Shown: positions 25,877-49,941 of the stretch, one piece after another | Position numbering within the stretch: the first letter of the stretch is position 1 | How the letters are laid out: the number at the start of each line of letters is the position of its first letter | DNA from: a virus | Lineage: Duplodnaviria; Caudoviricetes | Virus record (IMG/VR): IMGVR_UViG_3300025876_000027 | Coordinates: 1-53,087 of that record | Length of the DNA stretch: 53,087 bases | Direction: 5' to 3' (one strand) | Notes under the pieces: generated by a model | The model's input: only the letters and a program-made list of their open reading frames with translations | Told to the model about the DNA's origin: nothing | Database searches by the model: none | Position numbers and translations under genes: made by a program

Positions 25877-28800
25877 ATGGAAGAATTAGAAGAAATTGTA
25901 CAAAAAATGATGGATGAAAATACTCCTGAAGAAGAAATCAAAAAGTACATTAAAGATTACAAAGAGGGAAAGTCAAACGGTGTTGTAGCAATGGATGCGA
26001 CTGTAACACCAGAACAGGAAGCGTCCGAAAATATGGAATTACAATCGGAAAATATTTCTTTGGAATCACAAGAGCGTGAAAAAAGCCCAAATGGCTTATT
26101 AATTAATATAGAAAAATCTATAAAAGGAGCTAGAGAATTATCTTTAAAAAAACAAGAGTCTGAAGTTATTTCTAATTTTAATGATGTAAATAAAATTTTA
26201 AATTTAAATTTTGAAGGAGAAATTGTTGAATCAACTTCTGTTTCTACTCAAGAAATAAATGAAAACGCAAAATCCGCAAGTATTGGAAAAGCTTTAGATG
26301 ATGCTACTAAATTAAGTTTTGAAGAAAAACAATTAGCTATTTCACAAGCCGAAAATTTTGTAAATAATAAATCTACAAAATCTGTAAAAGTTAAAAAATT
26401 TCCTAACAATCCTGTTAGTGTTTTTATAAATAAACAGATTCCAAACGATGAATGGGTTGATTTAAATAAAAATGCAAAAACAAAAGTTTTTAATAATTTA
26501 AAAAAAGAATACCCAAGTTTTACACAAAAAGATTTTGATGAAAACTTAAATACGTATAATGAAGAAATACTTACTGAAATGGTAAGTATAAAAAATAAAA
26601 TAAATTTAAGAAAAGAAAGAGATAATAAAATAATAAACGTTATAGACACTTTTGATTTTTCAATGTCCTTAACAGATGCTCAAGAAAAATTAATAAAATA
26701 CAAAGAAAAAGAAAATAAAAAACTAGAAAAAAATATACAAAATTCTAGTGATTTTATGAATAACGCTGGCTCATATTTAACTCAAATAAATAACACTATA
26801 AAAAAGCTTGCTGGCACTAAATATGAAACTCAAGAACAAGCTAATAGAGCTAGAAAATTAGTTGACTCTTTACAATTAAAATTTAAAGAAACTCAAGAGG
26901 CTTCTTCAAAAAAATATCTTCAAGCAATGGATGATATAGAGACTTCAAATACAGCTTTGTCAGATTTAAATATTTTAACAAGAAATTATAATCCAATAAC
27001 TAATTTTGTTCAATCATTAAAAGCAAAAGGAGCTGGCCAGTTTGCCATAGGTGGTCTTAGGCTTTATGAAACTATTGTTAATCTTCCTGTTGAAATAGGT
27101 GAACTTTTAAACGTAAACTCAGCTTCTGATATATATATGAATAGCATGTTAGAAAGACCTGGCTCTTTCCAAGGAGTACCTAATGCTGTGACTACTGAAA
27201 AAAGTATAAAATTGATAAAAGAATGGCAAGAGGGTATATATAAAGAAATGCCATTGCCGCAAGATTTTGAAGATTTAAAAACACCTGAAGAATATGGTAG
27301 GTATATATCAGATCTAGCTGGTAGCCAACTTTTAAATATAGCTTCTGTTATGGTTTTAAAAAAAGCTGCACTACCTGTTTTAGGGTTAAATTCTTCTGGT
27401 GCTAAACTCCAACAGTTTGCTGAAGAACAAGAAAAATTAGACGCTTGGAAAAAAAATAAAATAGGACCTAAACCTGAAAGTGGAGATGTTAGTTTTGCAC
27501 AAAAATATATAACAGCAATTGGTTTTGGTGTTCTTGAAGGAGTAGGTTCAAAGCTACAATTAAAATTATATAAAGATTCACTTAGAGGATTTAGAGGTGC
27601 TTTAAAAAACCCTAAACTATCAGTAGGTATTAGGCAAGGCTTTACTAATTCACTAAAGTCAACTTTAAGTACGGCTAAAGATTTTGGTTTAGAAGGTCTT
27701 GAAGAAGGTTTTATAGTACAATATGGAAATAATTTTCTTGATAGGTTTGTTTTAGGAAAAAATATAAATTTACTTGATGGAGTTAAAAAAGCTGCAATTG
27801 ATGGTGTTTTAATAAGTCCTTTTTATAAAGCACCAGGGGTTTTAACGCCTATAGTTTCTATATTTCAATCTGTAGATTCTAATCAAAAAATAAGTCAATG
27901 GAAAACTGAAATAGATAAAATACAAAATTCATTGGTTGAAAATGCCAATATGGATTCTGAATTAATTCAAGTTGCTGAAAAAAGAATTTTTTCTTTAGTA
28001 AGTAAAATATCTGGGGAAATAAATAAAACAATGGATAGAACACTAAACATGTCTGAAGAAGACGTGATTAGTTTAGGTCAAATAGATGCGGAAATTTTTA
28101 ATTTAAGAAAACAACAGCAAAAAGCAGAGCAAAATGATTTATCTTTTAAAGGAGAAAATCCTTTATTAAAATCAATAGAAACAGAAGCAAACAATCTTTT
28201 ATTTGATAAAAATAATATATTAGAACCTTATATAAAACAAGATAATATTAAAAAAATAAAAGAGGTTCAAGAATTAAGTTCTAAAGCTAAAATTGACGAT
28301 AATTCTAATTTTTACGATACTAAAGAGGGTTTTATTAAAAGAGCCAAAGAATTAGGCATTGAAGTTACTGGAGAAGAAGACGCTCTTATAGATCCACAAA
28401 CTGGAGAAGTATTAATAAACGTAGACGTTGCTTCTGAAACAGGTGCTGTTTCTGCTCAACTTCACGAATATCTTCATAGAATATTAAAATCATCTTTTGT
28501 AAATGATTCTAAATCATTAAAGAAAATTAAAGATGAATTTAGAAATATTTTAAGTAAAAAACAATTAGCAATAGTTGAACAAAGAATTAATAAAAATTAT
28601 AGGTTTAATGAAGATGGTTCTGAAAAAAATGAATTAGAATACGCTGAAGAATACTTCACGGCTTTTTCTGACGCTGTTTTTAAAGATGAAATAAAATGGT
28701 CTGATAATTTAACAGAGTCGTTTTTATCATTTGGAAAAAAAATATTAGAACCAATTAGAAAAATACTTGGTAATGAAAAATTAGAATTTACTTCAGGAAG

Positions 28801-31800
28801 AGATGTTTATGATTTTATAATAGACTATAATAAAAACATTAAAAAAGGAGAAATAACCAAAAGAGGTGAAACTTTAATAGAAAAAGGAAAAAACATTAAT
28901 AAAAGTCAAGACGCTGTTAAACCTGTTGTTGCTTCTAAATCTAAAATAAAAGAAGCTTACGATGAGCTACAACAAATAGACGAGACAGAAGCTAACTTTA
29001 CTCTTGATTCAAAAAAACAAAAAGCATTAACAGATAGAAAAAATGAATTATTAAAAATACTTCAAGATGAAAATATATATGAGGAGTTACGTCAAATAGA
29101 TGAATTTGAAGCTGACTTTAATCCAAATGAATTTTCTAAAAATAGAAAAAAAGAACTTTTAGATTTAATAAAAAAAGAAGAAACAAAAGAAATAGTTAAA
29201 TTTTCTAAAACTAAAAAAGGTGTAAGTGCCTCAGAAGAAGTTCAAAGATTATTTAACGAAAAACCTAGAGACTGGGAGGTTGAAGTCATAAAACAAATGA
29301 GACCTATAACAGCTAAGCTTGTAGAAAGAAGAAGAGACGTTACTGGTTTTGATAGACAAATTTTAATTGATGAAATAGAAACAGGTGAAAGAGGTATTTT
29401 AGATTTAATAAGAAGTTATGATCCTAAAAAGAACGATTCTTTAGCTGCTTATATAAATACTTTTTTAAGCTTTAGAGCTCAAGAAGGTTCTAAACGTGTT
29501 TTAAAAGAAGTGTTTGAATCAGACGTCACCGAAGAAAGAAGTGTTGCAGCTCAAGAAGATGACATATCTATAGAAGATGCTGTAGATGAATCATTTAAAC
29601 CTACAATAGAGCAAAAATCAAAATTAAGAAGAGAAATAAAATTACCAGATGAGCAAGTTGAAAAAGTCAGAGAAGCAGTTAGAAAAACATTTGGAACAAG
29701 GTTACCTGACGTTAACTCGCCTGAATTCAAAAAAGCTCTTAGAAAAGCTTATGACACAGAGTTATTTAAAGAATTAAAAACAAATGTTTTTAAAACTAGA
29801 GATGAATACAGAAGTTTTTTAAGAGAAAACTGGAAAGCTTTATACGATGCAATACCTCAAGAAACACTTAACCAAAGCTTTGCGCCATTTAGAGAAGAAG
29901 TTTTAGATGAAAGCGGTAAACAAAAAAGAGAAAAAACACCTGAAGGTGAGCGTATATTTAGAAAAAAGAATATAACTAGAGAAGAGTTTTTAGATTATTT
30001 CTTTAATCCAAATGTTGGAGGTTCTACAAGAGGTACTAGAAAAGATGCAATAGTAAGGATGTTAGCTCAAGAACTTGGTTTTGATGCCACAATGGAAACC
30101 ATACAAGAGCCTAAAGTTGCAGAGAAAATAGCATTTGCTAATCCCACTGTTACAGTTCCAATTGCAGGAGTTGTACTTAACAGACCTGATGCAAAATTTA
30201 GTAAATCAAAATTACCAGAAGAATATGGTTGGCAAAAAGATGTCTATAAAATGGAAAGTATTGATGATGTTAAGCCATATATAGATAACTGGAAAGATTT
30301 AATGGAGCTTAAAGGTAAAAATGGTAAAAAAGCATTTAGTTCTAATTTGATAAGTTTTAGCATGCTTATGGGTGCTCCTAGAGCTTATTTAAAGAATATA
30401 GTAAGTATTAAAGAAATAGACAAAGCTGTAGGTAAAAATAACAAAAAAAATATAACTAGTTTACTTAATTATGATAAAAAATTATCAAATATAATTTATG
30501 GTAGTTTTAAAGGTCAAGAAACTGGTAAGGTAAAGCCTTCGCAAACTTTTGGTGGAAATACTAATTCTAAAAAATACAAAGAAAATAAATTAGAAAATTT
30601 ATCATATGTACAAGGTTATAACAAAAGAAACTCTTTACTTTTTGATAAGCTACTAATTGAAATAAATGAATTTTTTAATAGTAAAAATTTTACTGATGCT
30701 GAAATAAAAAAATATGGATCTTCTATTTTATTAATGTTAGAATCAACACAAGCAGAAAGAAATCATGCTTTATCAAACGGTGCTGCTGTTGTAGCTAAGT
30801 TTAATAATAACTATTCTGGTAAGTTAGAATATGAACACGCTGTTCCTAGTAAATACGTTTATGAATATATTTTAGATAATATTTTAGATAAAAATAAAAG
30901 TTTTGAAGATGCTTTAAAAAATATAAAACAAAATTTTACAGTTATTGTCATACCTGCAAATATTGCAAAAATAGTAGATACGGTATATAAATATACGATG
31001 CCAAAAAACTTTGACATAAATAAACCTGGAGATTGGATTAAAAGGTATATAAATCCTGAGGTTAAAGCAGCTTTAAAAGAAGAAGGAATTGATCCAAATT
31101 GGTTTGAAAACAATATGGAAATGCTTAACAGCAAAGATAAAAATTTGTTTAACCCGTCTAAAGAAGTGAAAGCAAGCAAAACTAAAGCTTCTTTTTTTAA
31201 TAAAATGATAGAAATAAAAACAGGTATACCTGCTAAGCGAAAAATAAGTGCAGTTACAGCAGCTAAAATGGGTGAAGAAAACAGAAAAATAGATTTCTTT
31301 ATTTCTCCATCTGCTGAAGACTTCATGGGATTACTTTATAAAACTATAGGTAAGGGCAAAGTAGGTGATGATCAAAAAAAGTGGATTAACGAAAATATAA
31401 TGAAGCCTTATGCTATAGCTATAGAGAAAATTACAATAGCAAGAAATGTTGTAACAAATAGTTTTCAAGCCATAACAAAAGATTTAAATATAACAGAGAA
31501 AGATTTAAAAAAGAAAATACCTAATAGTGTTTTTACTCAAGAAGATGCTGTAAGAGTTTATATATGGGCAAAGCAAGGATTAGAAATACCAGGTATATTA
31601 AAGAAAGAACAAAAAGAACTTGTTAGTTATGTTAATGGTAAAAGCAATTTAGTTAAGCTTGCCAACAACGTTATAAAAATAAATAACGTAGCTTTTAAAA
31701 CACCAACTGATTCATGGCAGGTTGGTAACTTAGGAACTGATCTTTTAGAAAGTTTAAACACAACTCGTAGAGCAGAGTTTTTAGAAGAGTGGCAAAATAA

Positions 31801-33163
31801 TGTTGATGATATTTTTTCTGAAAACAACCTTAATAAGCTTGAAGCTGCTTTTGGTAAACCTTACAGATTAGCTGTTGAAAATTCTTTACAAAGAATGAAA
31901 ACAGGTAAAAACAGAAACGTTGGAAGAGATAACACAACAAATAGAGTTGTTGATTGGACCAATGGTGCTACAGGTACAATAATGTTTTTTAATTCTAGAT
32001 CTGCTATACTTCAAACTATATCAGCCGTAAACTTCATAAACTTTGGTGATAATAATATAATAGCAGCAGGTAAAGCTTTTGCAAATCAAAAACAATATTG
32101 GTCAGATGTAACAATGTTGTTTAATTCAGAGTTTCTAGTAAATAGAAGAGATGGTTTAAAAATGAGTGTAAATGAAGCAGATATTGCTGACGTAGCTAGA
32201 CAAAAAGGCGTTAAAGGTTTAATAGCAAGATTATTAAAACTTGGTTTTACGCCTACGCAAGTAGCTGATAGTATTGCTATAGCAACTGGTGGTGCTACTT
32301 TTTATAGAAATAGATACAATGCTTTAGTAAAAGGTGGTATGAGCAATACTGATGCACAAGCTCAAGCAATGAGAGATTTTAGAGAAACAGCTGAAGAGTC
32401 TCAACAGTCAAGCAGACCTGATAAAATTAGCCAACAACAAGCTAGTGAATTAGGGCGTATAATACTTGCTTTTGCTAACACACCATCTCAGTATGCAAGA
32501 ATAATTAAAAAAGCCGCCCTGGATCTTAAGAATCGCCGAGGCAGTGACAAAGAAAACATATCTAAAATACTTTATTACACAGTAGCTCAAAATCTTTTAT
32601 TTAATGCGCTTCAAAACGCTATGTTTGCTGTTGCGTTTGGAGATGTAGATGATGAAGATAAACTTAAAAAAGAAATAAGAGTTGCAAATGGCATGGCTGA
32701 TTCTTTATTAAGAGGTATGGGTATTCAAGGAGCTATACTTTCTGTAGTTAAAAACGCTGCAATAAGAGTATATAAACAAGAATATAAAGAAATACCTATG
32801 GAATTATTAAGGATAAGTCCACCTATTTCTTCAAAGTTTAGAAAAGTTAAAAGAGCAACTGATATAATGAGCTGGGATGGAGATGAAATATTTGAGCAAG
32901 GTTTAACAATAGATAATCCAGCTATTGAAATAACAAGCAAAACTGTTGAAGCATTAACAAACTTACCTTTAGACAGAGCTATTAAAAAAATAACAAATCT
33001 TAAAGATGCTACAGATAGTGATTTAGAATTTTATCAAAGATTAGCTTTAACAGGTGGTTGGAATAAATGGGAATTAGGTATACAGGATAAGAAAAAAGAA
33101 AAACCTGTATCATCTAATGTAAATACAGGAAATATAATAGAAAAAGGAGAAATAATAGAATGA
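25877..33163 (+). CDS. Giant polyvalent putative ejection protein (zincin + sigma-like + HNH-like domains)
   Basis: HEYLH at aa 863; GILDLIRSYDPKKNDSLAAYI at aa ~1173; EHAVP at aa ~1653; podovirus ejection-protein position. Confidence 0.75.
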   Translation: MEELEEIVQKMMDENTPEEEIKKYIKDYKEGKSNGVVAMDATVTPEQEASENMELQSENISLESQEREKSPNGLLINIEKSIKGARELSLKKQESEVISNFNDVNKILNLNFEGEIVESTSVSTQEINENAKSASIGKALDDATKLSFEEKQLAISQAENFVNNKSTKSVKVKKFPNNPVSVFINKQIPNDEWVDLNKNAKTKVFNNLKKEYPSFTQKDFDENLNTYNEEILTEMVSIKNKINLRKERDNKIINVIDTFDFSMSLTDAQEKLIKYKEKENKKLEKNIQNSSDFMNNAGSYLTQINNTIKKLAGTKYETQEQANRARKLVDSLQLKFKETQEASSKKYLQAMDDIETSNTALSDLNILTRNYNPITNFVQSLKAKGAGQFAIGGLRLYETIVNLPVEIGELLNVNSASDIYMNSMLERPGSFQGVPNAVTTEKSIKLIKEWQEGIYKEMPLPQDFEDLKTPEEYGRYISDLAGSQLLNIASVMVLKKAALPVLGLNSSGAKLQQFAEEQEKLDAWKKNKIGPKPESGDVSFAQKYITAIGFGVLEGVGSKLQLKLYKDSLRGFRGALKNPKLSVGIRQGFTNSLKSTLSTAKDFGLEGLEEGFIVQYGNNFLDRFVLGKNINLLDGVKKAAIDGVLISPFYKAPGVLTPIVSIFQSVDSNQKISQWKTEIDKIQNSLVENANMDSELIQVAEKRIFSLVSKISGEINKTMDRTLNMSEEDVISLGQIDAEIFNLRKQQQKAEQNDLSFKGENPLLKSIETEANNLLFDKNNILEPYIKQDNIKKIKEVQELSSKAKIDDNSNFYDTKEGFIKRAKELGIEVTGEEDALIDPQTGEVLINVDVASETGAVSAQLHEYLHRILKSSFVNDSKSLKKIKDEFRNILSKKQLAIVEQRINKNYRFNEDGSEKNELEYAEEYFTAFSDAVFKDEIKWSDNLTESFLSFGKKILEPIRKILGNEKLEFTSGRDVYDFIIDYNKNIKKGEITKRGETLIEKGKNINKSQDAVKPVVASKSKIKEAYDELQQIDETEANFTLDSKKQKALTDRKNELLKILQDENIYEELRQIDEFEADFNPNEFSKNRKKELLDLIKKEETKEIVKFSKTKKGVSASEEVQRLFNEKPRDWEVEVIKQMRPITAKLVERRRDVTGFDRQILIDEIETGERGILDLIRSYDPKKNDSLAAYINTFLSFRAQEGSKRVLKEVFESDVTEERSVAAQEDDISIEDAVDESFKPTIEQKSKLRREIKLPDEQVEKVREAVRKTFGTRLPDVNSPEFKKALRKAYDTELFKELKTNVFKTRDEYRSFLRENWKALYDAIPQETLNQSFAPFREEVLDESGKQKREKTPEGERIFRKKNITREEFLDYFFNPNVGGSTRGTRKDAIVRMLAQELGFDATMETIQEPKVAEKIAFANPTVTVPIAGVVLNRPDAKFSKSKLPEEYGWQKDVYKMESIDDVKPYIDNWKDLMELKGKNGKKAFSSNLISFSMLMGAPRAYLKNIVSIKEIDKAVGKNNKKNITSLLNYDKKLSNIIYGSFKGQETGKVKPSQTFGGNTNSKKYKENKLENLSYVQGYNKRNSLLFDKLLIEINEFFNSKNFTDAEIKKYGSSILLMLESTQAERNHALSNGAAVVAKFNNNYSGKLEYEHAVPSKYVYEYILDNILDKNKSFEDALKNIKQNFTVIVIPANIAKIVDTVYKYTMPKNFDINKPGDWIKRYINPEVKAALKEEGIDPNWFENNMEMLNSKDKNLFNPSKEVKASKTKASFFNKMIEIKTGIPAKRKISAVTAAKMGEENRKIDFFISPSAEDFMGLLYKTIGKGKVGDDQKKWINENIMKPYAIAIEKITIARNVVTNSFQAITKDLNITEKDLKKKIPNSVFTQEDAVRVYIWAKQGLEIPGILKKEQKELVSYVNGKSNLVKLANNVIKINNVAFKTPTDSWQVGNLGTDLLESLNTTRRAEFLEEWQNNVDDIFSENNLNKLEAAFGKPYRLAVENSLQRMKTGKNRNVGRDNTTNRVVDWTNGATGTIMFFNSRSAILQTISAVNFINFGDNNIIAAGKAFANQKQYWSDVTMLFNSEFLVNRRDGLKMSVNEADIADVARQKGVKGLIARLLKLGFTPTQVADSIAIATGGATFYRNRYNALVKGGMSNTDAQAQAMRDFRETAEESQQSSRPDKISQQQASELGRIILAFANTPSQYARIIKKAALDLKNRRGSDKENISKILYYTVAQNLLFNALQNAMFAVAFGDVDDEDKLKKEIRVANGMADSLLRGMGIQGAILSVVKNAAIRVYKQEYKEIPMELLRISPPISSKFRKVKRATDIMSWDGDEIFEQGLTIDNPAIEITSKTVEALTNLPLDRAIKKITNLKDATDSDLEFYQRLALTGGWNKWELGIQDKKKEKPVSSNVNTGNIIEKGEIIE

Positions 33164-34484: not shown

Positions 34485-36206
34485 TTAACCGTCGCATGAT
34501 AAACAATTTTCATCCATAGCACTTGCAGCTATATCTCCTCTTAATACACTTTCAGTTCTAGTATAATACAAAGTCTTAACACCTTTTTTCCAAGCATCCA
34601 TGTGAACCTTGTTAATCCACTTAGGTGTAGCTTCACTAGGAAACGCTAGGTTAAGGCTAACTGACTGATCTATATACTGTTGCCGTATACCCGCTTGATT
34701 AACTAATTCAAGCTGGTTTATTTCTTTAAATGTTTTAAATACTTCTTTAACAGGTATATCATGATCACCCATTAAAACGTCATTGAGTTCTTCAATGTCT
34801 TGAACAGAGCCTCCGTCGCCTAGTATCTTACCCCATATGTATTCGTTGTTTAAACCGTTGTCTTCTAATACGGTTTCTAACGTAGGATTTTTTCTTATAA
34901 AAGTTCCTTTAGCAGACTGCTCTGTGAACACATTAGCCGCCCAAGGTTCTATACCTGGCGATACATTACCTGATAGTTTACTATTGCTAACGGTAGGAGC
35001 AACAGCACGAAGATGAGTATTGCGCATACCTGTACCAGTGCACCATAAAGGCTCACCGTATATTTCTGCCAGGTCCATCGAAGCTCTTTCACTTTCGATT
35101 TTAATCTGCGAGAATATCTTCCTAGTCTCATACTGAGATAATAAACCTTCGAAAGGAATACCTTTCTCTTGGATATATGTATGCCAACCGAGGACTCCCA
35201 AGCCCAATGCTCGCCCTTTTTGCGCAGATCGAACAGAGTTGTCGAATCCACGTAGACCTTTGGCTTTTTGAATAAATTCTTCCATAACGCCATCAAGAAA
35301 AAATGTGGCGTCATATATAAGGTTAGTACCTTTCCACTCTTCATACTTAGCTAAATTTAACGATGATAAACAACAAACAAAACTATGATTTTCATCTGTG
35401 TGTAATGTAATCTCACTACAGATGTTAGTCATGTGAACCTTTAACCCATTTTCTTTATAGGCTGGTGGATTAGACTTATTTGTGTTCCCTTTAAAAAGGA
35501 TATAAGGCTCTCCAGTAGCTTTTCGTTTTTGTAATAACTTTCCCCATTTTTTCCTAGCCTCCGCATCTCCTGATTCAAGCTTTCGCATGAACTTATCGCC
35601 GATAATAGCGCATTGATGCAAATTAAGTGATTGTCTGTTGACATCTCCTTTCGGTTCACGTATGTCAAGCCAATCTTCAAAATCGGAGTGATTAATGTTA
35701 AGATTAACCGACGCAGCTCCTCTTCTGACAGAGCCTTGATTAGTGGCAAGTATAGTTGAATCGTATATTTTACAAAAAGGCACAACGCCGTCACTTGTTC
35801 CATTACCTGTTATTTTAGTTCCAGCTGGCCTTATCTGATTAATACCAATACCTACGCCGCCGCCATGCTTGGCTAACAGCATCATTTCTAAATTCTTTTG
35901 TCCTATATCTTGGATTGAATCTGCTACGTCAATACCGAAACAACTAATAGGTAAACCGCGATCGGTACCGGTGTTGCTAAGTACAGGGCTAGCAAGGCAA
36001 AGCCAACCATTCCAGATGTATTCAAAAAAGGTATCAGCCATTTCAGGTTTATATAATCTGCGAGCAACTGTTTTAGAGACTCTTTGGTATGCTTCTCTAG
36101 GCGTTTCGTCGTGATATAAATATCCCCCGGATATTGTCTTCTTGTATATGTCGTTATCACCCCACGCAGGGTAATCTTCTCCTTTGATCCAGTTTTCATT
36201 CCACAT
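34485..36206 (-). CDS. nrdA: Ribonucleotide reductase class I alpha subunit, no ATP cone
   Basis: PISCF, TNICSEI, VCCLSS, APTVS, KTLYY, C-terminal CLSC. Confidence 0.95.
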   Translation of the reverse strand: MWNENWIKGEDYPAWGDNDIYKKTISGGYLYHDETPREAYQRVSKTVARRLYKPEMADTFFEYIWNGWLCLASPVLSNTGTDRGLPISCFGIDVADSIQDIGQKNLEMMLLAKHGGGVGIGINQIRPAGTKITGNGTSDGVVPFCKIYDSTILATNQGSVRRGAASVNLNINHSDFEDWLDIREPKGDVNRQSLNLHQCAIIGDKFMRKLESGDAEARKKWGKLLQKRKATGEPYILFKGNTNKSNPPAYKENGLKVHMTNICSEITLHTDENHSFVCCLSSLNLAKYEEWKGTNLIYDATFFLDGVMEEFIQKAKGLRGFDNSVRSAQKGRALGLGVLGWHTYIQEKGIPFEGLLSQYETRKIFSQIKIESERASMDLAEIYGEPLWCTGTGMRNTHLRAVAPTVSNSKLSGNVSPGIEPWAANVFTEQSAKGTFIRKNPTLETVLEDNGLNNEYIWGKILGDGGSVQDIEELNDVLMGDHDIPVKEVFKTFKEINQLELVNQAGIRQQYIDQSVSLNLAFPSEATPKWINKVHMDAWKKGVKTLYYTRTESVLRGDIAASAMDENCLSCDG

Positions 36207-36428
36207 TTATAATAAATGATTTATCCAGGCTAACAGCCCATTAATATTTAACACTACTAAGTTCCATTGTTTTCTGCTAGCAGTTTGCAGTGTGACTAAT
36301 ATAAACCCAAGTACATAAAGCTTAGGGTCTATAGTCCATTGAGCAGCAATCAAAAAACCGCTACCCATGTAGCCTGACCTAGTTGCTAGTTTCTCCCAAG
36401 GGCTCAAATTTTTTCTCGCTATCAGCAT
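36207..36428 (-). CDS. Small membrane protein
   Basis: Hydrophobic segments; start moved to MLIARK to reduce overlap. Confidence 0.6.
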   Translation of the reverse strand: MLIARKNLSPWEKLATRSGYMGSGFLIAAQWTIDPKLYVLGFILVTLQTASRKQWNLVVLNINGLLAWINHLL

Positions 36429-36630
36429 CTGGCCTAGCTTGCTTAGCTGACTGTTCTTTGAGTTTTTGAATAGCTTTTTCATAACCTGGCATGAGTTTAA
36501 TTGTTTCTAATGTACCTATAGCTAGGTCTTTTAAATAAGAATTTTGCATAAGCAATTGTTCTGTCATTTTAATTGTAGTATGTAGCTTTTTTTCTAGCTC
36601 TTCTACTCTACTTAGTTTTTTTGCTTTCAT
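36379..36630 (-). CDS. Hypothetical coiled-coil protein
   Basis: AATTAAATTAAATAAA leader. Confidence 0.7.
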   Translation of the reverse strand: MKAKKLSRVEELEKKLHTTIKMTEQLLMQNSYLKDLAIGTLETIKLMPGYEKAIQKLKEQSAKQARPDADSEKKFEPLGETSN

Positions 36631-36648
36631 TTTATTTAATTTAATTGT

Positions 36649-37620
36649 TTACCAAATATCTTGGAAGTCTTCTCCTTCATTTGCCTTTGAATAATCAGTG
36701 GGTCGTATTGCGAAAAAGTCAGTGTGTGTAACACCACCTGTTAAGTGATAAAACCAATTAAGATTATCTGCCGAAGCAGAATCATATGAGAAAAGATTAC
36801 CAAGTTTACTATAGCCAAGCTCAATGAGTTTTTCATTAGCTCTTTTTCTTATAAAGTTTATAAGGTCTTCTGCGGCTATACCTTCAACGTCGCCAGCTTC
36901 AAACATTTTATATATATACTTTGTTTCAAGGTCTACCATTGTTTCAGCAGCACTAACAACATCTCTTCTACATAGATTAAGTAAGTGCTCATCTTCAGCA
37001 CACATATCTCTAAATAGTTTACAACCCATCTTACTGTGCAGTGATTCATCACGCACCGACCATTTCATTTGTTGGCCTATACCTTTCATTAAGTTACGTA
37101 GTTGAAAAGAATATAATACTGCAAACGCAGAATATAAGCTAACACCTTCTGCAAATGCGGAAAATATAGCTAGTGATTTACCTATACCCACCCTGCCGTT
37201 ACCTTCGTAAGCTACAAGGTTATTAAACCTATCAGCAGTTGCTTCTTCATGTAAGAAAGCTTCGTAGTTTTCTAGTCCTAAAGTCTCGTTCAAGTAACTA
37301 TAAGCTACAGCGTGAACTGTTTCTTGTGAACCAAACATCATAGCCATTTGTTGTATCTCATGCTTTGGAAACCAACCCACTACTTTTTGAGTCCAGTAAT
37401 CTGAAACAGCACACTCGGTCTGAGCAAAGCCAAGAAGTATATTACCCACTAAACTCTTCTCTTTTTCATTAAGCTTTTCGTTCCAGTCCTTAATATCGCT
37501 TTGCATTGATATTTCAGTATGAAGCCAAAAGGCTTGAGCTTGCTTTAACCAGCCTTCTGTATAGTAGTCTGGGTATTCAAAAGGTTTGTATGCTACTCTT
37601 TCGTCAAATAAACTCATCAC
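36649..37620 (-). CDS. nrdB: Ribonucleotide reductase class I beta subunit
   Basis: FAQTE, ETVHAVAY, EGVSLY, DESLH, TDFF. Confidence 0.95.
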   Translation of the reverse strand: MMSLFDERVAYKPFEYPDYYTEGWLKQAQAFWLHTEISMQSDIKDWNEKLNEKEKSLVGNILLGFAQTECAVSDYWTQKVVGWFPKHEIQQMAMMFGSQETVHAVAYSYLNETLGLENYEAFLHEEATADRFNNLVAYEGNGRVGIGKSLAIFSAFAEGVSLYSAFAVLYSFQLRNLMKGIGQQMKWSVRDESLHSKMGCKLFRDMCAEDEHLLNLCRRDVVSAAETMVDLETKYIYKMFEAGDVEGIAAEDLINFIRKRANEKLIELGYSKLGNLFSYDSASADNLNWFYHLTGGVTHTDFFAIRPTDYSKANEGEDFQDIW

Positions 37621-37775
37621 TTATAAATAGTCAAAGCTAACTCTACAAAAGGTAAATACAATACGTGTATGGTATGCTTTTCATCTTCATGGTAACTTCT
37701 TACACCGAGAAGTATACCTGGATATACACCTATTTCTAATCTCCATTCATATTCTTTTTTTTCTTCTTCTAACAT
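37617..37775 (-). CDS. 52-aa hypothetical protein (not in ORF track)
   Basis: MLEEEKKEYEWRLEIGVYPGILLG...LYLPFVELALTIYK; coupled to nrdB. Confidence 0.65.
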   Translation of the reverse strand: MLEEEKKEYEWRLEIGVYPGILLGVRSYHEDEKHTIHVLYLPFVELALTIYK

Positions 37776-37936
37776 CTTATACCGTATTTATTTTGTTGTT
37801 CAACTAATTCTTTAAATATAACTTTGCCTTTGTTTTCCCAGCTCCATTTTATCCACTTATCAACTTTACGCTCTGCGTATCTTTTTCTTGCTATCCCTTT
37901 TGCTTCTGCAGGATCAACTCTACCGTGGTATCGCAT
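37769..37936 (-). CDS. 55-aa hypothetical protein (not in ORF track)
   Basis: MRYHGRVDPAEAKG...KWIKWSW...; fills the gap and overlaps both neighbours. Confidence 0.45.
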   Translation of the reverse strand: MRYHGRVDPAEAKGIARKRYAERKVDKWIKWSWENKGKVIFKELVEQQNKYGIRC

Positions 37937-38361
37937 TCTTTCTGATTTTGTGGTTTATATAATGTTACGCCTGGAAACTGCCTAACTACTAACTGCTTAA
38001 ATAATTTCCATCTCATTGGAAATGAATCATTAGCTCTACCTTTGGTTTCAATTATAAAGTTCTCTCCAATAAAGTCTGGTGTGTATTTAATAGGTAAAAT
38101 TCTTTTACAACCTCTATTAACGTAATCACCCTTACCATTAGATTGTCTTTCATAAACTTCATTATCAAAATGAAAACCGTTTAGTAAAACAAATGTCTCT
38201 CCTTCGTACTTAGCTTTAATCTTAGCTTTCCTAAGAGCTATGTACATATACTTCTCAAGACCTGAAGCAAACTTAATTCCATCATATGTTACTTTTTTAG
38301 CAACAACAGGTCCTTTTTTACGAGGCTTTTTTCTAAAGCTTTTTTTATTAGTAGCCCTCAC
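37891..38361 (-). CDS. PD-(D/E)xK endonuclease, T7 endonuclease I/resolvase-like
   Basis: FASGLE, YTPDF, IIETKG. Confidence 0.85.
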   Translation of the reverse strand: MRATNKKSFRKKPRKKGPVVAKKVTYDGIKFASGLEKYMYIALRKAKIKAKYEGETFVLLNGFHFDNEVYERQSNGKGDYVNRGCKRILPIKYTPDFIGENFIIETKGRANDSFPMRWKLFKQLVVRQFPGVTLYKPQNQKECDTTVELILQKQKG

Positions 38362-38608
38362 GTTCTTGTAGATATTTTAATGCAGCTTCTTCTATCTCAT
38401 CTGATAAGCAAAGCTTTGCAGCTTCGAGATATAATAAAGAGTCCATTAGTTCTTCTTGAACGTCAACTAAAAATCTTCTAAGATCTTTTTTCTCACCGAC
38501 TATTTCTTCCATCATAGTTGCGCCATATTTATCTTGGCCAACTAAGCTACGTTCATCCATCTTTTTTAAGACAGATAATACTACTTGGTCTTTAGTTCTG
38601 ATTTTCAT
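38348..38608 (-). CDS. Small all-alpha NTP-pyrophosphatase-like protein
   Basis: GQDKYG...QEELMDSLLY. Confidence 0.55.
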   Translation of the reverse strand: MKIRTKDQVVLSVLKKMDERSLVGQDKYGATMMEEIVGEKKDLRRFLVDVQEELMDSLLYLEAAKLCLSDEIEEAALKYLQEREGY

Positions 38609-39390
38609 TTTGTCTCTTTTACAAAGGTTCCACGTTTCATGCTGCCGCTCCTGTGCTTGATAACATTATATGCTGATTCGATACAATGCTCAATGCGAAC
38701 GCCCTCTAGATGTGCTAAGTTAGTCAAAACCACGACCATATCACCGATAGCGTCAACAATTTCTTCGTCATCATCTTTTAGTAAGGCTTCAGCAAGCTCG
38801 CCGGCCTCTTCCATAAGCTTTATGTATTGAACTTGAGATGTACCACGTTTGTGTATACCACGTTCTTTACCCCACTTACGTATAAGATCAAATATGTTTT
38901 GCTCTTTTGTTTCTATCTCGTCGTCTTTAAAGTTTTCTACAACGTCGTGGAACTCACCTTGAAAAGCTTTGTTATATATGTAGCATTTTTCTTTTGTGAA
39001 CATAGACACTTTGGCGTTGGTAATTATCCAAGGAATATTATCGCTAGTTATTGTAAAATCACCATGTGGTGTGTTCCAGGATAAACCTATGTTATCCATT
39101 AGCTGACCTTTTAGCTTGTCTACAGGGCAGGAAAACGTACTTGTTTGTTCTGTTGAATTGATTTTCATTTTATTAGATTTAGTATTTAATTCATTGTACT
39201 TACGTATATCAACCTTGTACCCATAAGACTTTTGAAGCTCTATTTCGCGGTTAGAAATGTAATCAACATCTTCTGACTGCTCAAGAACTTCGTATTCTCC
39301 CTCCTTATAGCCTTGTATAAGGGTGACGCGAGTATTAAGATTACGTGTAACGCCTATCTTTTTACCTGGAATGTGGTATAAATAATACAT
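38605..39390 (-). CDS. MazG-like pyrophosphohydrolase with N-terminal GIY-YIG-like domain
   Basis: KLMEEAGELAE...DAIGD; N-terminal YYLY...KIGVT..L..R. Confidence 0.8.
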   Translation of the reverse strand: MYYLYHIPGKKIGVTRNLNTRVTLIQGYKEGEYEVLEQSEDVDYISNREIELQKSYGYKVDIRKYNELNTKSNKMKINSTEQTSTFSCPVDKLKGQLMDNIGLSWNTPHGDFTITSDNIPWIITNAKVSMFTKEKCYIYNKAFQGEFHDVVENFKDDEIETKEQNIFDLIRKWGKERGIHKRGTSQVQYIKLMEEAGELAEALLKDDDEEIVDAIGDMVVVLTNLAHLEGVRIEHCIESAYNVIKHRSGSMKRGTFVKETK

Positions 39391-39396
39391 ATTTTT

Positions 39397-40041
39397 TTAA
39401 TTTATTTTATTATTATATAAGTGCATGTTGTGTGCGTGATGGTAATATGTTCCAACCTCATATCCTGACATCCTAGACATTAATTCCTGTATACATGAAA
39501 ATTGGTATTGATCATTACAGAAACCGTACCAGATGTCATTAGAACGCATATAGACAGACATATTTAGTTTGTTATTTAATACTGTAAACTGAACAGCATA
39601 TGTGCACGGTGTATCTGTGTTATAATCCTCATGTTCTTTACAATCATATATACTTATAGCAGCGTGCCTGGTGTTAGGATTTTTTGCTAGCTTTTCAGCT
39701 ACATAATGTAGTTGATTATTTCTATACATCTGATAGCCATAATTAGAATTAACTAATCTTTTTTCATCAGCCATCTTTTCCCATATAGGAGGTATATTAC
39801 CATAGATTTCACCTAGCTTGTCTATGCTACGATCACCAGATAAATACCATTGCCATTCAGCTTTAGCATATTTTAAACTCCAGTTTCTCTCTGTATTTAT
39901 AATATGGTTATCCATAGGATTTTCCATAGTAAAACCTACATTGAACAAAGCTTTGGTATCATCAAAGTCTTGGCCTTCTAAGAGTATTCTATCTAATAGA
40001 TACTCATATGCTTCATTTGCGTTTTTAAAATTACTTCTCAT
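39397..40041 (-). CDS. Thymidylate-synthase-family enzyme, dCMP hydroxymethylase-like
   Basis: NSNYG, PCT, YMRSNDIWYGFCND; start moved to MRSNF. Confidence 0.8.
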   Translation of the reverse strand: MRSNFKNANEAYEYLLDRILLEGQDFDDTKALFNVGFTMENPMDNHIINTERNWSLKYAKAEWQWYLSGDRSIDKLGEIYGNIPPIWEKMADEKRLVNSNYGYQMYRNNQLHYVAEKLAKNPNTRHAAISIYDCKEHEDYNTDTPCTYAVQFTVLNNKLNMSVYMRSNDIWYGFCNDQYQFSCIQELMSRMSGYEVGTYYHHAHNMHLYNNKIN

Positions 40042-40306
40042 TATTATATTTATTATAATAGTACAATTGATATTCACTAACTTTCTTCCATATCTGTGCA
40101 GAATTGTAAGGTTCAGGACTTGTTCCAATAACTTTTCTTCTACCAACAGGTCCTTTGTGTATGTCTATATACCATAATTTTTCATAAGCTTTAACTTGTC
40201 TAGGCTGAATAAGCAAATTGTTTTTGAAACACCAGTACCAAGCAGCTTCCTCCTTAGTAGACCTAGTATATTCTTGCATATCGCTTTTTCTACCTTTTAT
40301 TCCCAT
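40031..40306 (-). CDS. Hypothetical protein
   Basis: Coupled ORF. Confidence 0.65.
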   Translation of the reverse strand: MGIKGRKSDMQEYTRSTKEEAAWYWCFKNNLLIQPRQVKAYEKLWYIDIHKGPVGRRKVIGTSPEPYNSAQIWKKVSEYQLYYYNKYNNEK

Positions 40307-42012
40307 GGCATTGGTTCATCATCTTCAATAGCAGATTCATTAGGTATAAAGCAACCAGACTTTGGCTCCCATTTAAAATGAGCTTCAGCTTGGTTCTCAC
40401 CAAGGTTTTGAAACTTGACCTTTAATACCTTACACTTAACGGTTTTGTTTTCATAATCTCTATGAACTAAAAGCCCGTGATAACTAGCATCATACCACTC
40501 ACCACCACCTTTAATACTGTACATAGTAGGTTCTTCGATCTTACCATCTTTGTCTTTATACATCTTAGTTGGGTGTGCTACTACAAAAACCAACACGTCG
40601 TATTTCTTTGCAAACACTTCTATCTTAGTTAGATACTCCATTGTATAACGGTTTACATCTTCTGTTTTACAGTCGACGTCTCTGATCTTATTAAAAGGAT
40701 CAATCACTAAACACTTGATACCCTTGCGTTTAACTAGCTCAGCACCTTTTTTAAGGACTGACTCTAGTGTATAACGTTCCATATCAATATGAAAGTAATT
40801 ACTATTACAATGATCTGCTACTTGATTCCATTTGTCTGTACCAATATCTTCTTTACTAGGCATACCCTGCCAAGTCTTACGCATAAGCTTATGTGCATGT
40901 AGATATGTAGGTACATTTTCAGGAGATGCAAACGCAGTCTTCCAACCATAGTTAGCATTATAACCTACAACCATTTGGTCTACAAAGTCTGACTTACCAG
41001 ACGATGGTATACCAGTGACAGTTATAAACTGACCTGTGTAGGTAGAAAATATTCTGTCAAAGTTTGATAAACCAACTTGATAACCTTTCTTAAAACCGTG
41101 ACGAACAAAGTCAGTGATATCATCTTCGATATCTTTAAATGTTGTTACGTTTTCTAAAGGTACAGGTCGTGAGTTAGTTATACGTTCTAATAACTTCGTC
41201 TTACCATACTTCTGTAAATATTCATTAGCATCTTTGCAGTCTTCAAAAGACGCAAGGTAACATACTTCGGAACCTAATCGACGGATGAGCTCCGCCTGTA
41301 GTGCTTGCCCAGCTTCATCTGAGTCAACTGCTAGTATGATTTTTTCTTTGTCTTCAAAGTAATCAATACAAGCATCTAAGTATTCTAGGTTGTTTGAATT
41401 AAGTGTAGCGCCATTAGGAACTGATATGGCATTTGTTACACCAGCTTCATGTAAAGCTAGCACATCCATCTCACCCTCGACAAGCACACAGGTATCAAAA
41501 CCTATTATACTGTTTATATTATAGAACACTTTTTCAGCGCCCTTAAATAATTTAAAGTTCTTCCTACCATCTCTGTATTTGATGTTAATGAGTTGATCAC
41601 CCATCATGTAGTTGAACTTTATTACGTTCTCGGTTTTACCGGTCTGAGGCATAAACTCAGGACCCTCACCAACATTTAAGTCAGTGAGAGTCTTCTGAGA
41701 AATACCTCTTGTCTTAAACCATTCTACAACTTTTGTTCCAATAGGTTTTTCGTTGTTTACCCGCACTTCGGGACGAACGTAAACCTTTTCAGATGCACCC
41801 TTACGTTGGTAAGTGTGAAGTTGAAATGATGTATCACAGTTGTGACAAGTACCGAGACCACGTTCCCAATCATATGAAGCGCATTTAAGCTTTTGCTTCT
41901 TGGGTTGTCTGTCAGAGGAGCACAAAGGACATGTGCCTTGAGCTTTACCCTCTTCCAAACCATATTGATTGAACTCGTCAATCAAGAATCCATTGATCTC
42001 TGTTGTTTGCAT
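40297..42012 (-). CDS. Primase-helicase (T7 gp4/Twinkle-like)
   Basis: CPLC..CHNC zinc finger, EGEMD and DSD TOPRIM, GIPSSGKS, VIDP, VAHP. Confidence 0.95.
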   Translation of the reverse strand: MQTTEINGFLIDEFNQYGLEEGKAQGTCPLCSSDRQPKKQKLKCASYDWERGLGTCHNCDTSFQLHTYQRKGASEKVYVRPEVRVNNEKPIGTKVVEWFKTRGISQKTLTDLNVGEGPEFMPQTGKTENVIKFNYMMGDQLINIKYRDGRKNFKLFKGAEKVFYNINSIIGFDTCVLVEGEMDVLALHEAGVTNAISVPNGATLNSNNLEYLDACIDYFEDKEKIILAVDSDEAGQALQAELIRRLGSEVCYLASFEDCKDANEYLQKYGKTKLLERITNSRPVPLENVTTFKDIEDDITDFVRHGFKKGYQVGLSNFDRIFSTYTGQFITVTGIPSSGKSDFVDQMVVGYNANYGWKTAFASPENVPTYLHAHKLMRKTWQGMPSKEDIGTDKWNQVADHCNSNYFHIDMERYTLESVLKKGAELVKRKGIKCLVIDPFNKIRDVDCKTEDVNRYTMEYLTKIEVFAKKYDVLVFVVAHPTKMYKDKDGKIEEPTMYSIKGGGEWYDASYHGLLVHRDYENKTVKCKVLKVKFQNLGENQAEAHFKWEPKSGCFIPNESAIEDDEPMPWE

Positions 42013-42066
42013 TTAATTTAATTTAAGTCTTCAATTGTTATTGAGAAAAATATATCTAGTCGTTTG

Positions 42067-42372
42067 TTAAAACGGTAGATCTTCTACAACCTGCTTAGGC
42101 TGTGCAGCCTGAGGTTGATCAGTGCGAGGAGCAGTAGCAACATTGTCGCCATTAGTCCAAACCACTTTTACATTACCGAGATAAGTCTTAGGAGTTTTAG
42201 CATCACGCTCTTCCTTAGACTGCTCTACAACAACTGGGCCTTGGTTACCATAGGTATCCACCTCGTCGTTTAATGTAATCGTAATAGGTAAATACTTACC
42301 TTTTTTACCAACATAAATTTTCTCCTTTGGGATATCGTTTAAGTTGATACTTGCTTTAATAATACTTGCCAT
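42067..42372 (-). CDS. Putative single-stranded DNA-binding protein
   Basis: GKKGKYL, YLGN, acidic EDLPF tail. Confidence 0.75.
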   Translation of the reverse strand: MASIIKASINLNDIPKEKIYVGKKGKYLPITITLNDEVDTYGNQGPVVVEQSKEERDAKTPKTYLGNVKVVWTNGDNVATAPRTDQPQAAQPKQVVEDLPF

Positions 42373-42374
42373 AA

Positions 42375-43106
42375 TTAAAGGGTTTTGTTAATAAAATAGT
42401 TACTTGGATTAAAATCCGGGTTATCGAAGAATAAATTATAAGCAGCCACTGCTTCCTGAACCTTATCCTCTCCACGAGAGATAAATTTATCAGAGCAATC
42501 ATATATGCCTATTTGATGAGTGGTCTTACAGATGACAATAAATATCATCTCATACCCAAATAGTTTTTGATATATATAAGATTGGCTATTATAATTATAT
42601 CGCTCCGCTGAGTATTTGAACTTAGAAATATCAGCAGTAGTCTTAAGGTCAATGATTAATTTCTCATCATGATTTAAAATGTCTGCCTTACCTTTCCAAA
42701 GCTTACCAAATAGCTCAGTAATCCCAGGTACTTCGTACTCTACGTTCTTTGCACGAATTAATTCCTCACAAATCTTATTAGACATCATCTTGTCTATTAA
42801 TATTTCTGTTTGGTCTACCTCGTGTTGTAGTAAGCAAAGTTCTCCGTCTGAGATCTCTTTATACGCTTTAGTATTTCTAGTTGTTGCTTGTATAATCTTA
42901 AAGCTCTTAAGTTTTTCAGGCTCAAGTATTGCTGTATGAAAATACCCGCCAATTAAAAATGCTGGTATTGGTACCATCTGGTCACCTAGCGATAAAGGAT
43001 TTGTTAAAAGCTTAGAGATATCAGAGTTGCTCAAGAACTGCTTCCCGAACGCACCATAATAGTGTTCGTCTTCTCTAAGTTTATCTAACTGTTGTTGTCG
43101 TGTCAT
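42375..43106 (-). CDS. PD-(D/E)xK exonuclease (RecE/DUF3799-like)
   Basis: LSNS, G..FH..ILEP, KGKAD, IDLKT, Y..Q..Y. Confidence 0.85.
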   Translation of the reverse strand: MTRQQQLDKLREDEHYYGAFGKQFLSNSDISKLLTNPLSLGDQMVPIPAFLIGGYFHTAILEPEKLKSFKIIQATTRNTKAYKEISDGELCLLQHEVDQTEILIDKMMSNKICEELIRAKNVEYEVPGITELFGKLWKGKADILNHDEKLIIDLKTTADISKFKYSAERYNYNSQSYIYQKLFGYEMIFIVICKTTHQIGIYDCSDKFISRGEDKVQEAVAAYNLFFDNPDFNPSNYFINKTL

Positions 43107-43609
43107 TATAGAGTTTTTAAAGTAGCAGCGGGTATTTTATATTTAGATTTAATTGCTTCTAACTTACCGCCTTCTGCTAAAAACTTTTTAGCTTTTTCTA
43201 AAGCTTCACCTTTTAATTCAGGTTTAGTACCAGCGTCATCATCTTTGGTATCATCTATTAAAAATAGATTACCAAGTGAATACTTCTTAGCATATGATGA
43301 TGCAGTACCGAAACGCTGTGGCATTGCCATACCTTTTTGTGTTATATCTACACCAACGATAGCGGTTGCGTGTATAGCATTTTCACCATCAGATATAGTA
43401 GCCTTAGACTCTATCATAGGAAACATACCATCAGCGGATAATATAGTTTCGTTAATAGTAACGTACACTTTAAGCTCATCTAAAAATGGTTTTATAGCTT
43501 CAAGAATATCTTCGGCACTACGATAATTGTAGTCACCGAATTTGTTATATCTGCTTTTTTTAGCTTTAAGATTTGTTTGGATTGTTATTAGTTTTAGGTT
43601 TATGTTCAT
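43106..43609 (-). CDS. ERF-family ssDNA annealing protein
   Basis: YNYRSAEDI, Q.FGTASSYAKKY.L..LF.IDD.KDDD. Confidence 0.88.
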   Translation of the reverse strand: MNINLKLITIQTNLKAKKSRYNKFGDYNYRSAEDILEAIKPFLDELKVYVTINETILSADGMFPMIESKATISDGENAIHATAIVGVDITQKGMAMPQRFGTASSYAKKYSLGNLFLIDDTKDDDAGTKPELKGEALEKAKKFLAEGGKLEAIKSKYKIPAATLKTL

Positions 43610-43662: not shown

Positions 43663-44415
43663 TCATAGATAATCAAGCACTTGCGAGTGGTCAACATTGT
43701 CTATTAATTTTTGAACTGCTTGCTTTTTCATCTCTGATATACGTACGTAATCGCTTATGCCTTTTATATTTAGTAACTTTGCTATGTCTTTAGCTGAGTG
43801 CTTGTCACAATCGAGACCGTAAGATAGACGTAAAACTTCATATTCTGTATCATTTAAATGTTTTTTCATTAAACTTTTTAAATAAACATTCATCAGTGGT
43901 ATGTTATATGGCTCTGATTCATCAGGTATTTGATACATCATGTTGTCATCATCATCATTTACTTGAGCATCAATACTTAAAAATATACTATTAAAGAACA
44001 TTGCAACCATTGTTTTGTCTTTCGGGTTGCTACGTATCTCGTTAAGCTTATGTTCTGGTATTCTCATATCACCGCGAGCCATATCAATTCTACGTCTAAT
44101 GTTACCCTTGATACGTTTACTAAGAAAAGATTTTAATGTTTTCTCTATATCGTCAGATAACCTTAGCTTAGTCCAGTCTAATTTGTCTACAGCTTTTACT
44201 AGTCCTTCGTTACCGATCTGTAGTATATCATTGATACTCAGCACACCAGACGCTTGTTGTGACGTTGAAAATTTTCTCGCTAAGTTTTCTACTAGTGGCA
44301 TAAATACTATTATAAGTTCGTCTCTTGTATATTGGTCGTAATCTTTTTTATCAGGCATACATGCAATTAAATCCTCTTTGTAGCGGACATAATTAGGTAC
44401 GTTATATTTTTTCAT
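43663..44415 (-). CDS. Sigma70-family RNA polymerase sigma factor
   Basis: PLVENLARKF, DILQIGNEGLVKAVDK, MRIP, EVLRLSYGL..IAKLL region 4. Confidence 0.92.
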   Translation of the reverse strand: MKKYNVPNYVRYKEDLIACMPDKKDYDQYTRDELIIVFMPLVENLARKFSTSQQASGVLSINDILQIGNEGLVKAVDKLDWTKLRLSDDIEKTLKSFLSKRIKGNIRRRIDMARGDMRIPEHKLNEIRSNPKDKTMVAMFFNSIFLSIDAQVNDDDDNMMYQIPDESEPYNIPLMNVYLKSLMKKHLNDTEYEVLRLSYGLDCDKHSAKDIAKLLNIKGISDYVRISEMKKQAVQKLIDNVDHSQVLDYL

Positions 44416-45888: not shown

Positions 45889-45922
45889 TATTATCCAAAG
45901 TGTATCGTATTCTAATCGTATT
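45889..45922 (-). promoter_or_regulatory. Class I (early) promoter motif, copy 1
   Basis: + strand TATTATCCA-aagtgta-TCGTATT-ctaa-TCGTATT. Confidence 0.8.
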
Positions 45923-49893: not shown

Positions 49894-49941
49894 TATGACA
49901 TTAGCCTATTAACTAAGAGATAGTAACAGGCTATTGTCACA
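49894..49941. repeat. 48-bp inverted-repeat element, copy 2
   Basis: TATGACATTAGCCTATTAA...ATAGTAACAGGCTATTGTCACA. Confidence 0.85.

Follow-up and report, generated by a model that had tools for sequence, protein, structure and literature searches.

Genomic location and domain organization

The window analyzed here, that is, the whole stretch of DNA, is the IMG/VR virus record IMGVR_UViG_3300025876_000027, with 53,087 bases and an estimated completeness of 83%. Our subject is a giant open reading frame (ORF), P0001 (positions 25877–33163, + strand), which codes for 2428 amino acids and is the last large gene of the structural block of the + strand. No family is assigned to P0001 as a whole in Pfam, PHROG or NCBIfam. 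A preliminary description singled out a string of 65 amino acids which resembles region 2 of the sigma factors, and proposed that the phage injects a sigma module leading host RNA polymerase (RNAP) to early promoters. This string is found exactly at amino acids 1137–1201 (positions 29285–29479). It is included in a domain of about 105 amino acids, B1 (amino acids ~1115–1219, positions 29219–29533, + strand), which we have studied with AlphaFold2 (AF2), Foldseek, hhalign, ESM Atlas and complex prediction. We conclude that B1 is related, with much divergence, to sigma domain 2 (sigma2), or at the least resembles it closely in structure. In the sigma-70 family, sigma2 is responsible for binding the clamp helices of the beta' subunit of core RNAP. 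The initial observation is borne out for the most part, and the resemblance to sigma2 withstands the tests applied; that the phage injects an early-promoter sigma may still be true, but the case for it is weakened.

Comparison of P0001 with 98 distant members of its family shows three conserved blocks: A (amino acids ~830–1000), B (~1100–1445) and C (~1760–2400). The N-terminus is variable. Module B is composed of B1, an acidic linker (amino acids ~1220–1247, positions 29534–29617, + strand) with poorly conserved columns and a model confidence (pLDDT) below 50 in model residues 122–153, and B2 (amino acids ~1248–1422, positions 29618–30142, + strand), a conserved helical domain with a small hairpin in the AF2 model. 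Between modules B and C lies a variable segment (amino acids ~1451–1759, positions 30227–31153, + strand), which contains no Pfam family and is covered by 26–36 of the 98 distant members, against 84–98 for module B.

Module A (positions 28364–28876, + strand) is a putative zincin-like HExxH module. Its motif is HEYLH (amino acids 863–867, positions 28463–28477, + strand), and the HExxH pattern is conserved in all 141 members which cover it (255 were searched, 147 had a module A match). Pfam peptidase matches are weak and limited to single members (M90, E 0.0054; M78, E 0.011). The motif probably marks a zincin-like peptidase, which could process the giant protein. Module C (amino acids 1760–2400, positions 31154–33076, + strand) is the C-terminal, all-helical and most conserved module, in which many N, Q, R and G residues are invariant and an acidic catalytic signature is missing. 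The nearest named clusters in ESM Atlas are LPD39 and LPD38, which we take as leads only. The PhiM1 ejectosome was considered as a structural match of module C and discarded (E 0.35, prob 0.08, not meaningful).

Similarity of B1 to sigma domain 2

The alignment of the P0001 family (A1) was compared by hhalign with an alignment (A2) of six E. coli sigma-70-family proteins and the free sigma factor of the phage, P0002. A single match was obtained, between amino acids 1119–1197 of P0001 and residues 80–150 of RpoS (P=0.001, probability 21%), where the ungapped B1 stretch IETGERGILDLIRSYDPKKNDSLAAYINTFL pairs with RpoS. With an alignment of the domain only (220 sequences), the match to sigma had P=1.8e-4 and a probability of 48%. 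The controls are clearly different: the reversed template had P=0.28, and none of 30 column shuffles went below 0.17. Control pairings gave P=0.018–0.41 for B1 with modules A, B2 and C, and P=0.23–0.67 for these three modules with sigma. The resemblance claimed in the preliminary description is therefore above chance at the profile level, with these controls, and also at the fold level, since the lists obtained with Foldseek and ESM consist mostly of sigma factors.

Direct sequence matches are weaker. The A3 profile gave eight matches at E≤1 among PDB sequences; two of them are sigma factors, sigma-K (8vjl_B, E 0.12) and SigE (8b3z_A, E 0.35), both at B1. One family member, P0111, matches Pfam Sigma70_r2 (E 0.045, 14 bits against a cut-off of 24) at residues 948–1016, a place homologous to B1. 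B1 stays below the PF04542 and TIGR02937 family thresholds for region 2. The free sigma factor had also been said to align with the segment, which we could not reproduce: the best BLASTP match between P0001 and P0002 has E 1.2 and lies outside sigma region 2. The hhalign comparison of both families finds the correct register, with P=0.087 only.

In the AF2 model of amino acids 1095–1450 (mean pLDDT 74.8), confidence is high over two stretches, model residues 21–121 (B1) and 154–328 (B2), with pLDDT 78–91 (residues 21–120) and 80–95, respectively. When this model was compared with PDB by Foldseek, sigma factors or RNAP-sigma complexes were 26 of the 49 listed rows. Examples are 5h6x_A (RpoS regions 1.2 and 2; prob 0.97, template TM-score 0.62, rmsd 3.6 over 95 columns), 8b3z_A (SigE N-domain, template TM-score 0.68) and 5or5 (0.64). 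T4 gp55 in its RNAP complex (7d7c_F) was also found, with prob 0.57. In BFVD, a family member is followed by phage sigma factors, led by A0A6J5PZQ8 (E 0.049, prob 0.99). A sigma2-like fold is thus predicted for B1, as the preliminary description expected, with template TM-scores of 0.62–0.68 to the sigma2-only entries 5h6x_A, 5or5 and 8b3z_A; no match reaches E≤0.001.

A search of ESM Atlas with amino acids 1110–1225 points in the same direction. The set carrying PF04542 (Sigma70_r2) holds 24 of the 30 named matches, with a top score of 0.97, mostly viral proteins of ~119 amino acids. Such small sigma2-only viral proteins, some of them with Sigma70_r2, form the nearest clusters of B1. Like T4 gp55, they share with B1 a sigma2-like part without region 4. 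On the other hand, gp55-like factors are free proteins made during infection, while B1 is a domain within a giant protein of the structural block.

Profile, structure, language-model and weak direct matches concur, and for this reason we consider B1 quite likely to have a sigma2-like fold; common descent with sigma factors is somewhat less likely. It is not a complete sigma factor. The comparison of A1 with A2 gives the sigma2 match alone, with no region 4 helix-turn-helix, the part used for the -35 element and for flap binding, and in the absence of any sigma3 or sigma4 signal B1 has to be described as a sigma2-like domain. B2 was tried as a sigma4 and rejected, its hhalign P against the sigma profile (0.23) being on a par with that of the reversed control (0.29); it shows no sigma3 signal either. 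Among the rows listed by Foldseek, no PDB structure stands out as a match of B2.

Predicted contact with RNA polymerase

The sigma2 domain of the sigma-70 family (PF04542) has the same helical fold that is predicted for B1 (TM 0.62–0.68), and B1 is predicted to lie on the same segment of the RNAP beta' subunit. This second prediction was obtained with residues 1–380 of Flavobacterium johnsoniae beta' and B1, using an alignment made in this analysis. The median score of three runs was 0.74, the best of three controls scored 0.02. A score of 0.74 is attained by 58 of 80 solved complexes, but only by 2 of 110 mismatched pairs. The runs have at least 41% of their contacts in common, and the pLDDT of the partner is at least 76. 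Modelling with Flavobacterium beta', suggested in the preliminary description, therefore predicts a complex. The model may have been helped by its memory of solved sigma-beta' complexes, so this result shows likeness, not binding.

On the beta' side, the predicted contacts are residues 280–319, plus 41 and 340. On the B1 side they are amino acids 1132–1138, 1156–1162, 1165–1179 (the equivalent of region 2.2) and 1207–1210. The most conserved residues of B1 (E1166, I1167, G1170, G1173, L1177, I1178 and Y1181) are found in this region 2.2 equivalent, Y1181 just beyond 1165–1179. B1 also differs from the sigma-70 family: it falls below every family threshold, lacks sigma3 and sigma4 and is part of a 2428 amino acid protein rather than a free subunit. 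The positions of the tryptophan pair (WW) of RpoS are T and F in B1.

B1 might have a sigma2-like fold and not bind RNAP at all, being a structural part of the ejection protein, or a decoy for something else that recognizes sigma2, such as a host anti-sigma factor or a defence sensor. The marginal sequence similarity to sigma would agree with this, convergence is common among small helical domains, and B1 behaves as a cassette that can be exchanged, in the manner of other polyvalent-protein cargo (see below). The complex prediction can pass through likeness alone. Nevertheless, the same sigma register is obtained in four independent kinds of test, and the most conserved residues, those of the region 2.2 equivalent, are also those predicted to contact beta'. 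We consider this explanation rather unlikely.

Distribution of B1 in related phages

The family of the B1 region is large: a search limited to one length band found 833 proteins at E≤0.001, and 435 representative clusters at 50% identity were counted. They are metagenomic and unnamed. We collected 28 related IMG/VR loci with the member P0090; with L002 and L003, these provide 26 giant ORFs. Module A is present in all 26, and module C in 24, the other two being truncated by the end of the locus. B1 is found in 13 of the 26 (E≤1e-3) and B2 in nine; three loci (L013, L027 and L028) have B1 without B2. In addition, hhalign reveals that L021 and L024 have a diverged B1 (P about 2e-5) and that L018 may have one as well (6e-4), but it finds none in L031 or L032 (P 0.13–0.14).

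A search of the complete records finds module B in 13 of 28, always within the giant frame (13 of 13, in open frames of 2113–2882 amino acids). No separate gene for module B was found in these 28 records. A free-standing module B was also considered for the short matches in the databases, and discarded: most of those inspected have no start residue, so they look like fragments. Other cargo is present in the same protein in some cases, since the family members P0122 and P0123 contain kinase-type Pfam domains (Zeta_toxin, CPT, AAA_33). A Pfam search for alternative cassettes in nine variable middles gave only DUF2608 matches below the threshold.

From this distribution, B1 appears as an optional cargo cassette located in the variable middle of the protein. 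The constant chassis is formed by the HExxH module A and the 640 amino acid module C.

Gene context and probable packaging

Upstream of P0001 there are genes which PHROG assigns to terminase, portal and virion structural families, and a gene order with the giant ORF at the end is conserved in 27 of the 28 related loci. The structural block is colinear with that of Cellulophaga phage phi18:3 (portal, gp104, gp105, gp112–gp115). The last gene of the phi18:3 block, gp123 (1935 amino acids), is the positional counterpart of P0001, and its annotation as a virion structural protein is based on MS/MS data. Another relative is MW202828.1, with a terminase 64% identical and a giant protein of 3859 amino acids, whose sole similarity to P0001 is the zincin-like stretch. 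In this MW202828.1 protein the motif HEFGH occurs twice.

Because its gene is the last large one of the virion block, the P0001 protein is most likely taken up in the virion and ejected together with the DNA. The delivery in the virion proposed in the preliminary description agrees with this gene position, but it finds no help in homology to any proven virion protein. Judging from position and architecture, by analogy with phi18:3, P0001 is probably carried in the virion.

This architecture is that of the polyvalent proteins, for which the main text of Iyer et al. 2017 (PMC5512222) predicts packaging and injection. The same text gives the zincin-like MPTase as their commonest hub domain, with peptidases that may free other domains before or after delivery, and includes a zincin-like MPTase in the N4 virion RNAP. 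Like the proteins described there, P0001 is giant and multidomain, its gene lies among virion genes, it has a HExxH hub and a middle that is mosaic among its homologues, and some members of its family have Zeta-toxin-type inserts. None of the polyvalent-protein families in Pfam gives a significant match; the best is that of LPD38 to a single member (E 0.012). Nowhere does the main text of PMC5512222 use the word sigma, so that cargo of this kind is undescribed there; the word is also absent from Bartlau et al. (PMC8776804). At the level of listings and abstracts, we have found no description of a virion-packaged, injected or polyvalent sigma domain.

The giant protein might also remain unpackaged and act late inside the infected cell, where B1 would modulate RNAP, either in late transcription or in the shut-off of earlier classes. 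Its gene is in the late block and would be expressed late, no homology to proven virion proteins has been found, and the phage already has a free sigma factor. On the other hand, the giant product of the last structural gene is a virion protein in the colinear phi18:3, and this position is the one conserved in 27 of 28 loci. A HExxH motif, together with a variable middle with kinase-type inserts, also matches the polyvalent proteins whose packaging and injection are predicted in PMC5512222. We give late action of an unpackaged protein a low probability.

Comparison with the virion RNA polymerases is also of interest. Those of N4-like phages (gp50) and crAss-like phages (phi14:2 gp66) are ejected to initiate early transcription. 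Like P0001, they are of giant size and their genes lie together with those of the virion, but P0001 has neither a polymerase motif nor a polymerase family. The preliminary description had noted the lack of a DxDGD-type motif, and a regular expression search of P0001 agrees: no conserved DFDxD or DxDGD is present, only a DFD at amino acid 219 and an unconserved WDGDE at amino acid 2334. A cryptic polymerase in P0001 was considered and discarded, since no polymerase motif is seen and no RNAP family is found in Pfam, PHROGs and NCBIfam. Any role of P0001 in transcription would consist in binding the host enzyme, not in being a polymerase.

Promoter-like motif and free sigma factor

An early promoter-like motif, AATACGA-N7-TGGATAATA, is present in nine copies on the - strand between positions 45889 and 51256, each of them 5' of a small ORF. 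Eight copies are exact and one has a single mismatch. Neither the motif on the + strand of the window nor a reversed control pattern gives any match. The complete element has ~40 nt: an upstream half-site such as GTCACAA, AGAATACGA, 7 nt, TGGATAATA and a stretch similar to ATATAAAT; the half-site and the last stretch accompany most of the copies. The motif could not be read as the Bacteroidetes -33/-7 consensus, as we take this consensus to be. Other intergenic gaps showed no convincing common motif that might represent a shared late promoter class. Six or more related records have kept the motif family, variants included.

The free sigma factor P0002 (250 amino acids, positions 43663–44415, - strand) matches phrog_351 (2.1e-18) and TIGR02937 (43.7 bits, cut-off 42.9), and is detected by PF04542 in a six-frame search. 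Homologues are found in nine of the 28 related records, and in all four records which are at least 90% complete. Since its gene lies just downstream of the motif cluster, P0002 is more likely to be a middle or late factor. It has at least 8000 relatives at E≤0.001, the best 120 of which are 80–100% identical, several of them with Tara sources. Their number and sources point to a very abundant marine phage group.

These nine copies could be early promoters recognized by B1. In such a case B1, alone or with B2, would be a specificity factor delivered by the virion, which loads host core RNAP onto the phage early promoters at a time when no phage protein has yet been synthesized. The copies are specific for one strand, strongly conserved and placed 5' of small ORFs of the early region, and the motif family is conserved in relatives which carry module B (G002, G006 and G008, and G003 as the variant AACACGT-N7-TGGATAATA). 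The B1 helix equivalent to regions 2.3–2.4 has highly conserved residues (Y1192, N1194, R1200, E1203 and R1207, with R1200 at 100%). The sigma2-only gp55, which directs T4 late transcription, is among the structural matches of B1, and B1 is predicted to dock on beta'.

The relatives G020 and G021 are difficult to reconcile with such a role. They have 7–9 copies of the motif family on one strand and giant ORFs with modules A and C, but module B is found nowhere in the records, which are 68% and 84% complete, respectively, and the hhalign P for B1 likeness is 0.13–0.14, in single-sequence comparisons of limited reach. This is direct evidence against recognition of this motif class by B1, and we have rejected a strict link between B1 and the motif. 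In addition, about one in two of the related giant ORFs lacks B1, no sigma4 or other part able to bind a promoter has been identified, and the motif is only a candidate promoter, which host holoenzyme might also use. A specificity factor for early promoters seems improbable to us.

A broader version may be considered, in which the sigma2-like module of the virion programmes host core RNAP at the start of infection, perhaps after being freed by the HExxH peptidase, and relatives without B1 carry unrecognized equivalent cassettes in the same slot. We see a small chance of this being correct. In summary, what stands of the interpretation first given to this segment is a sigma2-like module in a giant ORF, with a large family, a predicted docking on beta' and a gene at the end of the structural block. 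What speaks against an injected early-promoter sigma is the lack of sigma4 and sigma3, the optional character of the module and the presence of the motif in G020 and G021, which do not have it.

The rest of the window contains several other features. A second element, TGTGACA..AGCCTATTA, about 15 nt, GGC..TGTCACAC, has dyad symmetry and is found in three copies, at 49903 (+), 51471 (+) and 45063 (-). One lies in the divergent region at 51.4–51.6 kb and another is 5' of the operon with the free sigma factor. This element could serve as an operator, as a terminator or as a promoter of a second class. A block of nucleotide metabolism and replication genes occupies positions 34485–43609 of the - strand: large and small subunits of ribonucleotide reductase, a resolvase-like nuclease, a MazG-like pyrophosphatase, thymidylate synthase, a primase/helicase, an exonuclease and an Erf-like annealing protein. 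A gene for a GroEL-type chaperonin is found at positions 668–2227 (+ strand; phrog_5725, 9e-136), and phi18:3 has a GroES gene adjoining its terminase.

Discussion

We propose, tentatively and with a chance a little short of even, that B1 is an accessory cassette which binds the RNAP clamp and is probably carried by the virion, as part of a giant protein of the polyvalent type. The giant protein would be packaged and ejected alongside the DNA, as suggested by the position of its gene. Once in the cell, B1 is predicted to take the site where sigma docks on host core RNAP. It might then capture polymerase for the incoming genome, exclude the host sigma factor, or both. B1 has no sigma4, is missing in about half of the relatives, and the motif is present in relatives without it; for these reasons an accessory RNAP-binding effector is preferred to a factor which defines the early class. 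Injection of RNAP-modifying enzymes by phages is already known, T4 Alt being an example.

Several results count against this proposal. With respect to the sequence, Pfam, PHROGs and NCBIfam give no match, even at E≤10, on P0001, on its amino acids 1101–1440 (P0003) or on a piece of 87 amino acids, and a six-frame PF04542 search of the window (E≤10) picks up the free sigma factor alone, not the B1 segment. When 26 family members were scanned at E≤10, Sigma70_r2 was absent from the first 25 of the 51 families listed. Searches of PDB sequences by phmmer with P0003 and with the 26-sequence A1 profile found no sigma factor, and neither P0001 nor P0003 has a counterpart in 50,697 phage records by megablast and tblastn. 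The hhalign probabilities for B1 and sigma are just 21–48%.

Structural results also have to be read with care. The B1 model has no Foldseek match at E≤0.001 in PDB or BFVD, and that of module C (mean pLDDT 66.4) has none in PDB at this threshold. Memory of solved complexes, as indicated above, may explain the complex score. Residues 280–319 of beta' are presumably the clamp helices, an assignment which we take from E. coli numbering. Finally, P0001 has no detectable homology to phi18:3 gp123 or, outside the zincin-like stretch, to the MW202828.1 giant protein.

To our knowledge, phage early transcription is started in two ways, by the host holoenzyme or by an injected polymerase of the phage itself (N4-like, crAss-like and phiKZ-like phages). 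If our proposal is correct, a virion-borne sigma2-like domain that docks on the polymerase would be a case of host takeover by binding, not by catalysis. If host core RNAP were programmed at entry, this would represent a third strategy of early transcription. The family is large and, judging by its sources, marine and abundant, so a defined function would allow the annotation of many uncultured phages of the Flavobacteriia type. The combination of a constant chassis and a variable cassette is a natural experiment, in which one phage backbone is found with and without the module.

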